DNA of 64,000 nt from an uncultured Acidobacteriota bacterium (GTDB taxonomy: Bacteria > Acidobacteriota > Vicinamibacteria > Vicinamibacterales > 2-12-FULL-66-21): contig CAVVSF010000005.1 of NCBI GenBank assembly GCA_963750915.1, positions 298,709-362,708 of the forward strand, in the 5' to 3' direction. Below the pieces are notes generated by a model that was not told the DNA's origin, made no database searches, and was given only the letters and a program-made list of their open reading frames with translations. Position 1 is the first letter of the stretch; every line of letters starts with the position of its first letter. Positions 10,317-62,407 of the stretch are shown here, in pieces. Made by a program: the position numbers and the translations under genes.

Positions 10317-10357
10317 CCGGGGACAGTCACTCGGGACAGTCACGGGTGACTGTCCCC
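10317..10357. terminator. GGGGACAGTCAC-family hairpin (copy 2), downstream of the SDR gene
   Basis: 41 nt identical to 1347..1387. Confidence 0.5.
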
Positions 10358-10383
10358 GACCGACAAAGATCGACAGGCGGCGA

Positions 10384-15255: not shown

Positions 15256-16646
<1,391 letters not shown>

Positions 16647-16647
<1 letters not shown>

Positions 16648-17972
16648 TGCCACCACGACACAAGTACTGGACGATCATCCTCGAAGGCAAGCCGACCGCG
16701 TTCCGCGCCGCCGAGGAGAGCGAGCTGCTGCCGACGCTGAAGCAGCTGCAGCAGCGTCACCCCGACGCGGTGATGAAGTGGTTCGCCGGCGGCCGGCTGT
16801 GGACGTCACCTGAGGAGGAGCGCCTGGCGCAGAAGGCGCGCGGCGGCAAGCGCGAATCGCGCGGCCGCGACTGGCGGCCCGGCGGCGAGCACCGCGACCC
16901 GCGCGAACGCTTCAAGATCCCGCGCGACGAACGACGCCGCCGGTTCCGCGAGCGGCTCTTCGACGATCGTCGCGACGCGCCGGGCGACAAGCCGAGCGAG
17001 GGCGATTCGCCGGCGCCGCCGCCGCGGCGCGAACCGCCGCGCGACCGGCCGTGGCGCGACACCCAGGGTCGGCCACCGGCCGGAGATCGGCCGAACAGAC
17101 CGCCACGCGAGGGCGATCGCGAGCGCCGGCCGCGGGATGGCGAGGGCGGCGACCGGCCGCCGCGCCGGGAGGAGCAGCGCGATCGACCGGCGCGGCACGA
17201 GGGCGATCGGCCGTGGAAGCCGGCGCGGCCGCAGGGGCAGGGTGGGTATGGCGATCGCGACCGTCGGCCGGCACCGGATCGCGATCGACCCAAGGCGCCC
17301 GGTGGGTACGGTGATCGCGACCGCGAGCGGCCGAAGTCCGCGTGGAAGCCGCGGCCGCAGGGGCAGGGTGGGTATGGCGATCGCGACCGTCGGCCGGCAC
17401 CGGATCGCGATCGACCCAAGGGACCCGGTGCGTCCGGCGATCGTGACCGCGAGCGGCCGAAGTCTGCGTGGAAACCGCGGCCGCAGGGGCAGGGTGGGTA
17501 TGGCGACCGCGACCGTCGGCCGGGACCGGATCGCGATCGACCCAAGGGACCCGGTGGGTCCGGCGATCGCGACCGCGAGCGGCCGAAGTCCGCGTGGAGG
17601 CCGCGGCCGCAGGGGCAGGGTGGGTATGGCGACCGCGACCGTCGGCCGGGACCGGATCGCGATCGACCCAAGGGACCCGGTGGATACGCCGATCGCGACC
17701 GCGAGCGACCGAAGGGACCGGGCGGATACGGCGATCGCAATCGAGAGAAACCGAAGTCCGACTCGAAACCAGGGCGGCCATCGAGCCCGCGTGGTGATGG
17801 TCGCGGATGGAAGCCGAATCGTCCACCAGGAGGAGGCGGCGGCAGCGCGGGCGGCGGCAATCGCAGCTGGCAGCGCGGCCCCGACGCCGGGCGGCGGGGG
17901 CCCGGACGGAAACCGGGTGGCGGTAGCGGCGGTGGCGGCGGACGCGGGCCACGCGGCGGTGGCAGCCGGTGA
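16647..17972 (+). CDS. Hypothetical protein: about 65-aa folded N-terminus followed by an Arg/Asp/Pro/Gly-rich disordered region with 42-aa tandem repeats and an RGG-like tail
   Basis: ATG overlaps the NtrC stop (TGATG). The N-terminus is MPPRHKYWTIILEGKPTAFRAAEE..., followed by repeats RPQGQGGYGDRDRRPxPDRDRPKGPGGxGDRDRERPKSAWKP. The coding strand was chosen by coupling to its neighbours. Confidence 0.6.
17225..17730 (+). repeat. Four tandem copies of a 126-nt (42-codon) repeat inside the CDS
   Basis: The GCAGGGGCAGGGTGGGTATGGCGA landmark recurs at 17231, 17357, 17483 and 17609, with an exact period of 126. Confidence 0.85.
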
Positions 17973-19411: not shown

Positions 19412-19501
19412 GGCTCAGGGCTCAGAGGCTCACAGAGCTTTCACTGCACATTCGAAGATCTTGCTTGAGCCCCCTGAGCCGTGAGCCCTGAGCCTTGAGC
19501 C
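19412..19501. repeat. Heptamer-periodic hairpin (GGCTCRG / CYGAGCC arms) between the NusG-like gene and dus
   Basis: The left arm GGCTCAGGGCTCAGAGGCTCAC pairs with the right arm GTGAGCCCTGAGCCTTGAGCC (2 mismatches). The loop is about 48 nt. Confidence 0.6.
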
Positions 19502-19507
19502 TTAGCC

Positions 19508-20083
19508 TTAGTAAGCTCTCACATCCGCCGCGTCGACTTCGACGCTGACGGCCTGGCCAATCAGATCGACGGCGAGGACGAGGCGCGCGTGCGCGCCTTT
19601 GCGCACCAGGCGGCCGGTGACGCCTTTCAGCGGGCCGCCGGTCACCTCGACCATCATCCCCTCGCGGATGAGCGCGCACGGGTCGTACTGCAGGTCGCTC
19701 TCGACAAGTCGGCGGATGCCGTCGATCTCCGGTTCCGGGATCGACGCAATCTCGCCGTTGAACGAGACGATGTTGACGACGCCGGTGCACGTCAGGATCG
19801 GCAGCCGTTCCTTCGGGTCGAACCGCGCGAAGCAGTAGCCCGGAAAGAGCGGCCAGTCGACCTTTTTCTTCCGATCCTTCCACCGGCTCCAGCGGGCGAT
19901 CGTCGGCAGGAAGGCCTCGTAGCCCTTGCCGAGAATTTGGTCGCGGACGACTTGTTCGTGCCGGGAACGGGTCCAGATCGCGAACCACGGCGCCGGCGCT
20001 GAGGGATCAGCCAATATTGTTCGTGTCCAGATTGGCGACGTACCGCTCGTACGCCTTCCGCAGCTCCTCGTTCTTCCAGACAA
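19508..20083 (-). CDS. NusG-family paralog (RfaH/UpxY-like transcription antiterminator)
   Basis: NGN domain (WFAIWTRSRHEQVV...LFPGYCFARF) plus KOW (GMMVEVTGGPLKGVTGRLV). The start is uncertain; TTG at 20014 would shorten the overlap with the upstream PPIase gene. Confidence 0.75.
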   Translation of the reverse strand: MSGRTRSCGRRTSGTSPIWTRTILADPSAPAPWFAIWTRSRHEQVVRDQILGKGYEAFLPTIARWSRWKDRKKKVDWPLFPGYCFARFDPKERLPILTCTGVVNIVSFNGEIASIPEPEIDGIRRLVESDLQYDPCALIREGMMVEVTGGPLKGVTGRLVRKGAHARLVLAVDLIGQAVSVEVDAADVRAY

Positions 20084-27251: not shown

Positions 27252-27365
27252 GTGCCGGGGCTCGGGGCTCGCGGCTCGGGGCTCGAAAAGCTTCTCGATT
27301 CCGGGCCAACGACTTCGTTCAGGAGGAACTTCGAACCCCGAGCCCCGAGCCCCGAGCCCCGGCAC
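27252..27365. repeat. Long heptamer-periodic hairpin filling the wzm-wzt spacer
   Basis: GTGCCGGGGCTCGGGGCTCGCGGCTCGGGGCTCGAA pairs with TTCGAACCCCGAGCCCCGAGCCCCGAGCCCCGGCAC. Arms are about 36 nt and near-perfect; the loop is about 42 nt. The element ends 8 nt from the wzt ATG and starts directly after the wzm stop. Confidence 0.75.
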
Positions 27366-34500: not shown

Positions 34501-35532
34501 TTACAAGACATTTACGGCCGATCCTGACGATTCTGTCACTCGACCAATGTTCGCCACGACTACACCCGCCGAACGGAGAACATCGAGCGCCACTGACATG
34601 TCAGTAGCGGCAAGCGAAATCAGCAGGCCACCCGACGTCTGCGGGTCGTAGAAGAGCTGGATCAGGTCGGGCGGCACGTCGGCGGCGACCTGTGTCGACG
34701 TGCCGAAATGCTGCGCGTTCGTCCGGCCGCCGCCCGGCACATTGCCGCCGACGAGGTCGCGGGCGCCCGGCAGCAGCGGCACCGACGCGGCGTCGATCTC
34801 GAGCGTGCAGCAGCTCGCGGCCGCCATCTCCATCGCATGGCCAATCAGGCCGAAGCCGGTGACGTCGGTGCAGCCGTGCACGGTCCGCGGCGGCAATCGT
34901 TCCAGGGCCTCTGCCGCGGCGCGGTTCAGCGTCGTCATCGAAGCGACGGCGGCATCGATCGCATGCGCCGGCGCGCGCTGAAACTTGAGTGCGGTGGAGA
35001 TGACCCCGGTGCCGAGGGACTTCGTGAGCAGGAGCACGTCGCCGGGGCGCGCGCCGGCGTTGGACCAGATCGCCGAGGGAGAGATCTCGCCGGTGATGGC
35101 GTAGCCGAACTTGATCTCGGCGTCCTGCACGGTGTGGCCGCCGAGGAGTGCGACGCCAGCCTCGCGCAACGTGTCGAGACCGCCGCCGAAGATGTCGGCG
35201 AGGATCGCGCGATCGGCATCCTTGGGGAACGCGGCGATCGCGAGCGCGGTCAGCGGCCGGCCGCCCATCGCGTAGACGTCGCTCAGGGCGTTGGCGGCGG
35301 CGATGCGGCCGAAGACGCGCGGGTCGTCGACGATCGGCGTGAAGAAATCGACGGTCTGGACGAGCGCGCGATCGCGATCGATTTTGTACACACCCGCATC
35401 GTCGGAAGTCCGGTAATCGATCAGGACCCGTGGGTCGTTCGGCACGCGCAAATCGCCCAGGACCTGGGCGAGCTCGCCAGCCGCGAGCTTACTCGCTCAA
35501 CCCGCGCAGGCGGCGTAGTCAGTCAGTCGCAT
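34501..35532 (-). CDS. selD: Selenide, water dikinase SelD, predicted selenocysteine-containing (in-frame TGA at 35497..35499)
   Basis: ORF track starts at 35451 (TTG). Upstream in the same frame reads ATG-MRLTDYAACAG-TGA-ASKLAAGELAQVLGDL-RVPNDPRVL..., which aligns with the SelD N-terminal loop (RLTQYS..AG[C/U]GCK..P..L..VL). A GC-rich stem (GCGAG..CTCGC, GGCGAGCTCGCC) directly follows the TGA. Confidence 0.8.
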
Positions 35533-35549
35533 TTCTTAATCGGGGGACT

Positions 35550-36067
35550 TCGTCCCCCGAACCCCCTTACACGTTCGCTTGCGGGGGCCCCATTGCCCCG
35601 CGCCGCTCACGTGGCTTCGGTCGCTTCGCTCCCTCGCGGCGCGTCGGGCAATCTCGTCCCCCGAACCCCCGTGCACGTTCGCTTGCGGCGGCCCCATTGC
35701 CCCGCGCCGCTCACGTGGCTTCGGTCGCTTCGCTCCCTCGCGGCGCGTCGGCAATCTCGTCCCCCGAACCCCCCTACACGTTCGCTTGCGGCGGCCCCAT
35801 TGCCCCGCGCCGCTCACGTGGCTTCGGTCGCTTCGCTCCCTCGCGGCGCGTCGGGCGATCTCGTCCCCCGAACCCCCTTACACGTTCGCTTGCGGCGGCC
35901 CCATTGCCCCGCGCCGCTCACGTGGCTTCGGTCGCTTCGCTCCCTCGCGGCGCGTCGGCGATCTCGTCCCCCGAACCCCCGTGCACGTTCGCTTGCGGCG
36001 GCCCCATTGCCCCGCGCCGCTCACGTGGCTTCGGTCGCTTCGCTCCCTCGCGGCGCGTCGGGCGATC
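35550..36067. repeat. Five tandem copies of a 103/104-bp repeat
   Basis: TCGTCCCCCGAACCCCC recurs at 35550, 35654, 35757, 35861 and 35964, with a partial sixth copy at 36068. Units are more than 95% identical by eye. Confidence 0.92.
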
Positions 36068-36074
36068 TCGTCCC

Positions 36075-36137
36075 CCGAGCCCCGAACCCCTAACCCCGAA
36101 CCCCGAGCCTGAGCCCTGAGCCCTGAGCCCTGAGCCG
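36075..36137. repeat. GAGCCCY/GAACCCC heptamer tract ending the tandem array, immediately downstream of the parB stop
   Basis: CGAGCCCCGAACCCCTAACCCCGAACCCCGAGCCTGAGCCCTGAGCCCTGAGCCCTGAGCC. Confidence 0.8.
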
Positions 36138-36150
36138 ATCGAGACTCCCC

Positions 36151-37005
36151 TTAGCCGCTCGTCAGCTGCTCGTAGATCCGCTGCAGCTCGTCTTCGGATC
36201 CGAAATCGATCTCGATCCTTCCGCCCTTGCGCTTGCGCGTGATGCGGACGCGGGTGCCGAGTGAGAAGCGCAGCTTCTCTTCGGCGGCGCGCGTGTGCAC
36301 GTCCTTCGGCGACTCCTCGCGTTCGGTCGCGGGCTCGAGCGCCTTGTTGACCAGGACTTCGGTCTCGCGCACCGAAAGCTTGCGCGCGACGACGTCGCGG
36401 CCGATGCGGAGCTGGGCGGCTTCGTCGGGCAGGCCGAGAAGGGCGCGGGCGTGTCCCATCGCGAGTGCGCCGGAGGCGACGTTCTCGCGCATCTCGTGCG
36501 GCAGCTTGAGCAGCCGCACGGTGTTGGCGATCGTCGAACGATCCTTGCCGACGGCGTCGGCGACCTGCTCCTGCGTCAGCTTGAGCTCGTCGAGCAGCCG
36601 TCGGTACGCGGCGGCTTCCTCCATCGCGTTGAGGTTCTCGCGCTGGATGTTTTCGATCAGCGCCGCGGCGAGCAGCTGATCGTCCGGCGTGTCGCGCTGG
36701 ACGATCGGCACCTTGAGCAGGCCGGCACGCTGGGCCGCGCGCCAGCGCCGTTCGCCGGCGATGATCTCGTAGCCGCTCGCCGACTTGCGCACGACGATTG
36801 GCTGGATGATGCCGTTGGCGCGGATCGATCGCGCGAGCTCGTCGATCCGCTCCTCGTCCATCACCGTGCGCGGCTGGAACGGGTTCGGCGTCAGCAGATC
36901 CGTGTCGACTTCGAGCGGCTTCGCCGAGCTCGCCGCCGGCGCCGGTGTAGCGCCGGGAATCAGCGCGCTCAGGCCGCGGCCGAGGGCCGGACGTTTCTCA
37001 ACCAT
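36151..37005 (-). CDS. parB: Chromosome partitioning protein ParB (Spo0J)
   Basis: LTPNPFQPR box, GERRWRAA arginine patch, HTH region. 8-nt overlap with parA. Confidence 0.95.
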   Translation of the reverse strand: MVEKRPALGRGLSALIPGATPAPAASSAKPLEVDTDLLTPNPFQPRTVMDEERIDELARSIRANGIIQPIVVRKSASGYEIIAGERRWRAAQRAGLLKVPIVQRDTPDDQLLAAALIENIQRENLNAMEEAAAYRRLLDELKLTQEQVADAVGKDRSTIANTVRLLKLPHEMRENVASGALAMGHARALLGLPDEAAQLRIGRDVVARKLSVRETEVLVNKALEPATEREESPKDVHTRAAEEKLRFSLGTRVRITRKRKGGRIEIDFGSEDELQRIYEQLTSG

Positions 37006-37959: not shown

Positions 37960-37975
37960 GGTTCCACGTGAAACA
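37960..37975. promoter_or_regulatory. parS site (GGTTCCACGTGAAACA, 1 mismatch to the TGTTNCACGTGAAACA consensus)
   Basis: Read directly from the sequence, 160 bp upstream of the parA start. Confidence 0.75.
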
Positions 37976-38017: not shown

Positions 38018-38077
38018 CCGAGCCCGAGCCCCGAGCCCCGAGCCCCGAGCCCCGAGCCCCGAGCCCCGAGCCCCGAG
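38018..38077. repeat. Direct heptanucleotide microsatellite (CCGAGCC)n, about 8.5 copies, between the two parS sites
   Basis: GGGCCGAGCCCGAGCCCCGAGCCCCGAGCCCCGAGCCCCGAGCCCCGAGCCCCGAG. No complementary arm is nearby. Confidence 0.85.
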
Positions 38078-38082
38078 AAGAA

Positions 38083-38098
38083 TGTTCCACGTGAAACA
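38083..38098. promoter_or_regulatory. parS site (TGTTCCACGTGAAACA, perfect match to the consensus)
   Basis: Read directly from the sequence. The flanking CC(C)GGCGCG is shared with the first site. Confidence 0.85.
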
Positions 38099-38226
38099 CC
38101 CGGCGCGTGTCAACTCCACCTGAAACGCAACTTCGGCGCTTCAGCTGGCGATTGCTGAACGAACCCAGCGAGCGCCCCGAACCCCCTGAGCCCTGAGCCC
38201 TGAGCCCTAAAAAGCGCAGCGCCCAC

Positions 38227-51204: not shown

Positions 51205-51294
51205 CGGCTCAAGGCTCAGGACTCAGGGCTCAGGAGGGCTCAGGGCCGTCGAGCCTTGAGTCCCCCTGCGCCTTGAGCCCTGAGCCCTGAGCCG
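51205..51294. repeat. Heptamer-periodic hairpin (GGCTCAR / YTGAGCC arms) in the gyrB-gyrA spacer
   Basis: CGGCTCAAGGCTCAGGACTCAGGGCTCAGGAGGGCTCAGGGC faces GAGCCTTGAGTCCCCCTGCGCCTTGAGCCCTGAGCCCTGAGCCG. The complementarity is long but imperfect. Confidence 0.6.
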
Positions 51295-61187: not shown

Positions 61188-61220
61188 AACTTCGAAGTTC
61201 GAACTTCGAACTTCGAAGTT
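61188..61220. repeat. 33-nt near-perfect palindrome of TTCGAA-based heptamers in the leuA-leuB spacer
   Basis: AACTTCGAAGTTCGAA-C-TTCGAACTTCGAAGTT has perfect 16-nt arms. Confidence 0.8.
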
Positions 61221-62313: not shown

Positions 62314-62407
62314 CAAGTTCGAAGGTCGAAGGTCGAAGTTCGAAGTGAAGTTCGAAGTTGAAGCTTCGAGGTTTACTTCGAAGTTCGACCTTCGGCCTTC
62401 GAACTTG
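62314..62407. repeat. Long heptamer-periodic hairpin (GTTCGAAG/GTCGAAG arms) filling the convergent leuB-glmS spacer; candidate bidirectional terminator
   Basis: CAAGTTCGAAGGTCGAAGGTCGAAGTTCGAAGT pairs with ACTTCGAAGTTCGACCTTCGGCCTTCGAACTTG. Arms are about 33 nt with few mismatches. The element spans stop codon to stop codon. Confidence 0.75.

Follow-up and report, generated by a model that had tools for sequence, protein, structure and literature searches.

The pneumococcal BOX element (boxA-boxB(n)-boxC) is a modular, structured intergenic repeat in which the number of modules varies and which can alter the expression of an adjacent gene. They are not known to occupy a fixed place with respect to start codons. 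The 5′ stem-loop of ompA and the T7 RNase III sites, stabilizer or processing hairpins of 5′-UTRs and intercistronic regions, are stable, irregular and situated immediately before a translation start. REP/BIME elements are short GC-rich intergenic palindromes that are often transcribed and differ in copy number between strains; they lie mostly downstream of genes, and their clusters are reiterated in tandem together with flanking DNA (PMC3733652). MIRUs, as described in PMC4473831 (after Supply et al., 1997), are dispersed intergenic units of 40–100 bp that are oriented as the flanking genes and vary in tandem number; by definition they are without dyad symmetry, and they contain small ORFs that overlap the stop and start codons of their neighbours.

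The array analysed here lies between parB and selD in the window, by which we mean the whole 64-kb stretch of DNA under study (66.8% G+C). The window is a replication-origin neighbourhood, with dnaA, dnaN, gyrB and gyrA on the + strand and mnmE, mnmG, rsmG, parA, parB, selD and the atp genes on the minus strand. The repeated element is a new, orientation-specific variant of the dispersed intergenic repeats of the REP/BIME/MIRU class. Its conserved unit of ∼75–104 nt has two hairpin domains (denoted H1 and H2), whereas a REP is a single palindrome of 20–40 bp. Like the ompA and T7 RNase III-site hairpins, it is oriented with its genes and occurs in leaders and between cistrons, but those hairpins are single-locus structures and the selD-array element is a dispersed repeat family. 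It differs from BOX in that the whole unit is reiterated and not an internal module; BOX is also from another phylum and unrelated in sequence. Vicinamibacterales (Acidobacteriota) are abundant in soil and their genetics has barely been studied. A structured repeat that stands only in sense just before start codons would offer a handle on their mRNA leaders and intercistronic regions.

The tandem array between parB and selD

The spacer from the parB stop (36151) to the selD ATG (35532) is filled by five repeat units, a partial sixth and heptamers. An earlier note on this DNA had reported five 103/104-bp tandem repeats, a hairpin beside selD and heptamers at the other end of the array, all of which are present on inspection. 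Tandem Repeats Finder returns 35550–36083 with a period of 104 (5.2 copies, 96% matches, score 991), and the 17-mer TCGTCCCCCGAACCCCC recurs exactly at 35550, 35654, 35757, 35861 and 35964, with two mismatches at 36068; five exact occurrences compare with 0.02 expected from shuffles. The parB stop and the corrected selD start proposed before are confirmed. Exact look-ups of the ParB and SelD proteins matched no record. The features are as follows (+ strand coordinates).

34501–35532, minus strand: selD (TIGR00476, 323.8 bits), ATG at 35532–35530
35541–35559, minus strand: H2 hairpin, in sense CGGGGGAC-GAA-GUCCCCCG (fold and family covariation)
35567–35615, minus strand: H1 domain of the selD-proximal (canonical) copy (covariance model, 72.5 bits; MFE fold, z = −3.57)
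35671–35719, 35774–35822, 35878–35926 and 35981–36029, minus strand: H1 in the four distal copies (covariance model, 66–69 bits)
35550–35653, 35654–35756, 35757–35860, 35861–35963 and 35964–36067, minus strand (sense for parB and selD): five head-to-tail units
36068–36136, minus strand: end of the array, a partial unit merging into heptamers (GGGCUCA)n(GGGGUUC)n, G-rich in sense (sequence and repeat finding)
36151–37005, minus strand: parB (TIGR00180, 196.9 bits), stop TAA at 36153–36151

The units measure 104, 103, 104, 103 and 104 bp and abut one another with no unique spacers, which is unlike CRISPR, as had been noted. They differ at three variable sites whose pattern is non-periodic. The two spots recognized earlier are both real; a third had been missed and reads GCGGGGGCC in the selD-proximal unit versus GCGGCGGCC in the other four. 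GTAG, GTAA and GCAC variants occur next to the G-run, and there is one CACGTG per unit. Two internal complementarities had been proposed: CGCGCCGC...GCGGCGCG is not kept in L024, a metagenome contig that carries the same locus, but GCGGGG...CCCCGC is the inner stem of H1. The heptamer tract itself occupies 36073–36136, and a canonical G4-type motif lies at 36080–36104 within the partial unit and heptamers. Searches of the 64-kb window with blastn, with nhmmer and with a covariance model run without filters gave no further copy of the unit; in the last of these the five units score 66–72 bits and the next best match 15.8 bits.

The selD-proximal copy has an outer H1 stem CACGU/ACGUG, a middle GC/GC step, an inner stem GCGGGGC/GCCCCGC and a loop AAUGGG. 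Its H2 (on the + strand CGGGGGAC-TTC-GTCCCCCG) ends 8 nt upstream of the selD AUG, with the A/U-rich AUUAAGAA (35533–35540) in between. Intact H2 is limited to this copy: in all four distal copies the 3′ arm of H2 is replaced and the inner H1 stem carries a derived CCCCC→CCGCC change. The distal units are 97–99% identical to one another, in keeping with the recent amplification or homogenization suggested before. When an interior unit was folded, the family structure was not recovered and z was −1.0 to −1.63, little better than shuffled sequence; folding whole units or the whole array gave z values of only −1.0 to −1.3. Thus, the canonical family arrangement is kept by the proximal copy alone and the distal copies are structurally degraded. 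Because the interior unit folds little better than shuffles, one cannot speak of structured RNAs throughout the array. The earlier idea of a structured RNA array in the selD 5′ region holds insofar as RNA structure is the most plausible level, but only the proximal copy has the family fold. The bulk of the array may have no function.

A coding repeat had been thought unlikely on the ground that the period is not a multiple of three. The array is indeed non-coding, as its absence in relatives indicates, but the argument from the period is weak, since two units add up to 207 nt (103 + 104, or 69 codons) and all three + frames are open throughout. These frames are antisense to selD, the sense strand has stops and relatives do without the array; a coding repeat was therefore rejected. 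An integron attC site was likewise rejected, parB and selD being syntenic core genes in all relatives. No known RNA family accounts for the element: the suggested comparison with Rfam (release 15) gave no match at gathering score in the window and only matches with E-values of 3.6 or worse inside the array, and ten loci of the family described below gave no match at E up to 1. The array is a non-coding, lately homogenized tandem repeat, a strain-variable expansion.

Structure and placement of the dispersed family

Related sequences were retrieved from soil-metagenome contigs, which are probably short-read assemblies, with an exact 20-mer seed from the sense strand of H1 (CGGCGCGGGGCAATGGGGCC). 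Thirty-seven contigs matched. In 32 of these similarity extends over 70–100 nt around the seed; the other five are chance matches within coding sequence. De-duplication leaves ∼22 distinct gene contexts, and all family copies are intergenic. The most sampled context, an HNH locus (seven contigs), is named Vicinamibacterales by its source, as are the ParB relatives of the window, and at least some of the 32 element-bearing contigs are from this group. A scan of a species-representative genome collection with a CACGTG-centred 20-mer, the least conserved part of the unit, gave one chance match in a response-regulator coding region and is uninformative on isolate genomes. Ten matches to a 16-mer in viral contigs are also chance, in coding sequence and without flanking similarity, and a phage origin of the unit was rejected.

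The element has the orientation of the downstream gene in every one of the ∼22 contexts. A co-oriented ATG with a credible N-terminus lies 64–78 nt after the seed start in 21 of them, and the element usually ends 5–12 nt upstream of this ATG. The downstream genes are unrelated. Those assigned by Pfam encode URO-D-like, ECF sigma factor, HNH nuclease, HD hydrolase, O-acetylhomoserine sulfhydrylase (metY), carboxyltransferase, cupin, ThiS, DHODH-like and xylose-isomerase-like barrel proteins; ornithine aminotransferase, MltG, HlyD, HD-GYP and ThiG were judged from translations only, and in L024 the gene is selD. In at least ten contexts the element lies between co-directional genes, always in sense, and at three loci (L015/L025, L021 and L032) the stop codon of the upstream gene abuts it. 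In the divergent spacers of L005, L006 and L023 it follows a TATAAT-like (−10-like) box by a few nucleotides.

A family member consists of H1, a linker, H2 and a tail that runs into the AUG. H1 has three tiers (an outer stem of 5 bp, a middle step of 2 bp and the inner stem GCGGGGC/GCCCCGC, which closes the loop AAUGGG). The linker is short and purine/G-rich and contains a GGRG run, which 19 of 21 sequences have 5′ of H2. In H2 a GC-rich stem of 6–9 bp carries a loop of 3–5 nt, and the tail comprises 5–12 A/U-rich nucleotides. Folding of six members independently (MFE) recovered H1 and H2 and left the start codon unpaired, with z between −1.5 and −3.9. Invariance of the inner H1 stem is by construction, as it served as the search seed. 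The outer stem covaries: CACGC/GCGUG (as in L031 and L038), CACGU/ACGUG (as in the window), GCCGC/GCGGC and GGACGC/GCGUCC all occur. The H1 covariation score is 0.171, compared with 0.060 in shuffles (0 of 500 reach the observed value) and at most 0.073 with slid partners. In an H2 alignment of 10 sequences picked by eye from two subfamilies, 91% of cells are paired and 16 are changed on both sides versus 5.4 expected (0 of 500 shuffles). These folding and covariation results, of the kind proposed by the earlier note, support the structure. A third subfamily has H2 replaced by a near-copy of the inner H1 hairpin. G–U pairs are found in the sense strand, in H2 of L013 and in H1 of unit 3 of L024, in agreement with folding of the sense RNA. 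Two direct G-rich heptamers and one inverted heptamer make up H2, which reproduces in miniature the arrays of inverted heptamers that occupy other spacers of the window and its relatives.

One could view the element as a selfish REP/BIME-like DNA repeat, moved by a RAYT-type or other transposase, with hairpins that are recognition structures in single-stranded DNA and a functionless cluster at selD. The element is palindromic, GC-rich and extragenic (H2 and the inner part of H1 are short imperfect palindromes forming hairpins of 19 and 20 nt), it occurs at selD in one shallow lineage only and elsewhere at other genes, and tandem reiteration together with flanking DNA is known for REP clusters (PMC3733652). 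GTAG even stands beside the G-run in one unit. However, the stable GTAG or CGTC tag at the palindrome end of REPs is not kept: the position is variable within the array, and the tag is absent from the other subfamilies. REPs are found mainly 3′ of genes, in spacers flanked by co-directional or convergent ORFs, and in either orientation (PMC3733652), whereas all of the ∼22 contexts have the element in sense and 5′ of a start codon, with no convergent or antisense placement among them. The family also appears to be low-copy, judged from a single locus in the 64-kb window and no copy in ∼100 kb of unselected DNA from the origin regions of relatives; REP/BIME elements are marked by many copies per genome and an associated RAYT (Y1 transposase) gene. 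Duplications within the family point the same way. In L009 a 143-nt tandem duplication, ∼330 nt upstream of metY, comprises the last ∼30 nt of the upstream gene and the whole of H1–H2; the orthologous locus (L014) has a single copy. L013 has a tandem copy at the contig edge and L038 a partial duplication. Because the duplication boundaries vary, and that in L009 lies inside a gene, slippage or unequal recombination is indicated rather than element-specific transposition. We therefore regard the selfish-repeat explanation as unlikely. The earlier note had allowed that the unit might be a dispersed REP/MITE-like repeat with no positional preference; it is dispersed, but its preference for position and orientation is strong. 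Were the element merely selfish, the array would still be explained and the idea of a partition platform (see below) removed.

Origin and possible role of the array

We consider it very likely that the array is an amplified copy of the dispersed, oriented and structured element. The fuller account that we favour, and hold to be reasonably probable, is a VNTR-type amplification of a ∼104-nt dispersed Vicinamibacterales element, in which the distal copies were produced by slippage or recombination and the spacer is transcribed, with the element acting at the RNA level. Synteny of parB and selD is conserved among Vicinamibacterales relatives but the spacer is not. L024 is 97.5–97.7% identical to the window in parB/selD and has four units where the window has five, differing in length and sequence; array length thus varies between strains, as the earlier note had proposed to check, and the element shares with MIRU-VNTRs both the orientation of the flanking genes and a variable tandem copy number. 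Identity between the two arrays is 96% for the proximal units, whereas the distal units of the window are only 88–92% identical to the L024 units. Relatives at 82–90% ParB identity have spacers of 20–175 nt from which the element is absent: ∼20 nt in L004 (85% ParB identity), 31 nt in L045/L047, ∼130–135 nt of inverted heptamers, different from those of the window, in L003 and L042, and ∼175 nt with other repeats in L043/L044. The element thus precedes selD in a single shallow lineage, and other lineages have it at other genes. By sequence comparison the array is young and variable, and it is a ready strain-typing (VNTR) marker beside the replication origin.

We infer that slippage or unequal recombination between direct repeats, the G-runs at the unit ends, gave rise to the distal copies, which have been homogenized within this lineage. 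An assembly artefact, namely repeat collapse or inflation or a chimeric join, is very unlikely. Short reads make the assembly of near-identical 104-bp units difficult, and a further contig (L002, 97.9% identical in parB/selD) breaks off within unit-junction sequence, 73 nt beyond the parB stop. Nevertheless, in the independent contig L024, which reaches from parB to selD, four units stand at this same site and in the same orientation; the differences at three sites of the units are non-periodic, and the flanks join parB and selD cleanly. The exact copy number of the near-identical units is uncertain if the source assembly is a short-read one.

The whole spacer would be transcribed with parAB into selD, read-through being suggested because no sigma-70 promoter consensus or intrinsic terminator was found in the spacer. 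The stable hairpins of the element may influence mRNA stability or processing, with the start codon left in an open A/U-rich stretch. The proximal canonical copy would be the leader structure and the distal copies by-products; the extra copies may be neutral or may merely modulate selD expression. From its sequence features, the element may act as an mRNA leader structure. Its function at the RNA level, for which orientation, position, covariation and G–U pairs are the only indications, we put forward tentatively, as a serious possibility that falls a little short of likely. Taken by itself, the array is a VNTR-type expansion of an ordinary kind, and what underlies it, a leader element with a locked orientation, is more interesting and more open to test. 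A hairpin-bridged Shine-Dalgarno sequence was also considered but is unsupported, as many genes of the window are without any Shine-Dalgarno sequence.

A bolder proposal, which we think rather improbable, is that the H1–H2 cassette is an undescribed, portable post-transcriptional control module of Vicinamibacterales, which dozens of unrelated genes have acquired at their 5′ ends. Its invariant loop and stem might be bound by a global RNA-binding protein or an RNase, or the four G-tracts and two C-tracts might switch between hairpin and G-quadruplex; the selD array would then be a copy-number dial on a self-dependent selenoprotein gene.

Translational coupling in the manner of MIRUs, by which small ORFs in the repeat would link termination upstream to initiation at selD, is very unlikely. 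The element is oriented with its flanking genes, 18 of 23 loci have a stop codon 2–9 nt ahead of the ATG, and in the window a 93-codon sense ORF (35817–35536) ends 3 nt short of the selD ATG. Yet many loci have no start codon in that frame, a CCCC/CCCCC indel changes the frame between members, and the conserved AUG of the H1 loop opens an ORF ending beside the main AUG in only 5 of 23 loci. The element consists of covarying hairpins with no conserved ORF; MIRUs, by definition, are without dyad symmetry, and they contain small ORFs (PMC4473831).

Very improbable, and rejected here, is a platform of repeated DNA sites that would bind ParB or some other DNA-binding protein through a CACGTG core, in line with the earlier suggestion of a protein-binding platform: although the array adjoins parB, has one CACGTG in each unit and includes an imperfect DNA palindrome (inner H1), canonical parS sites lie elsewhere (37960 and 38083) and share just a 6-bp core with the unit, CACGTG is an arm of a covarying stem that becomes CACGAG in the sister array of L024 and CACGCG in other members where the opposite arm has changed to compensate, unrelated genes remote from any par locus are preceded by this element too, and relatives are without it at this position.

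parS sites, heptamer tracts and the selD start

A search of the window for the 16-bp parS palindrome TGTTNCACGTGAAACA, with up to four mismatches, gave matches at 37960, 38083 and 40089 only. Two are canonical parS sites upstream of parA, TGTTCCACGTGAAACA and a one-mismatch copy on the + strand, at 37960–37975 and 38083–38098. The pair flanks an eight-copy (GGGGCTC) heptamer array, and the distal site is closely preceded by a TTGACA hexamer.

The selD frame contains a TGA at codon 12 (35499–35497), followed by hairpins at 35489–35471 and 35470–35454. From its sequence context, this TGA is likely a selenocysteine codon with a SECIS-like element at 35454–35489. The codon and its context are conserved in L003, L004, L024 and L042–L047, and E. 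coli SelD has a Cys at this position. Gene callers start selD after the TGA, which yields a 316-aa product.

Many confident gene starts (21 are listed, among them gyrA and gyrB) have no Shine-Dalgarno sequence within 15 nt, and several follow a short A/T-rich stretch, which suggests a weak reliance on Shine-Dalgarno pairing in this organism.

A 126-bp tandem repeat at 17224–17714 (3.9 copies, 94% matches) encodes a 42-aa Arg/Asp/Gly/Pro-rich sequence (…RPQGQGGYGDRDRRPAPDRDRPK…) within the + strand ORF 16329–17972. This is probably a protein-coding tail of low complexity rather than an intergenic array. The hairpin CACTCGGG-ACAGTCA-CGGG-TGACTGT-CCCC occurs twice, at 1358–1390 and 10328–10360 (∼9 kb apart), and may be another small dispersed palindrome.

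Heptamer microsatellites (GGGCTCA, GGGGCTC, GGGGTTC, AAGTTCG and their complements) are found in many spacers of the window, in the following tracts:

19472–19509, 27256–27361, 36073–36136, 38018–38077, 38184–38208, 51206–51246, 61188–61217 and 62315–62394: heptamer tracts

Three of them are canonical G4-type motifs, all on the minus strand. Some of the heptamers stand as inverted pairs with the potential for long hairpins, such as (CGGGGCT)4 and (CCCCGAG)4, separated by 47 nt, at 27256–27361.
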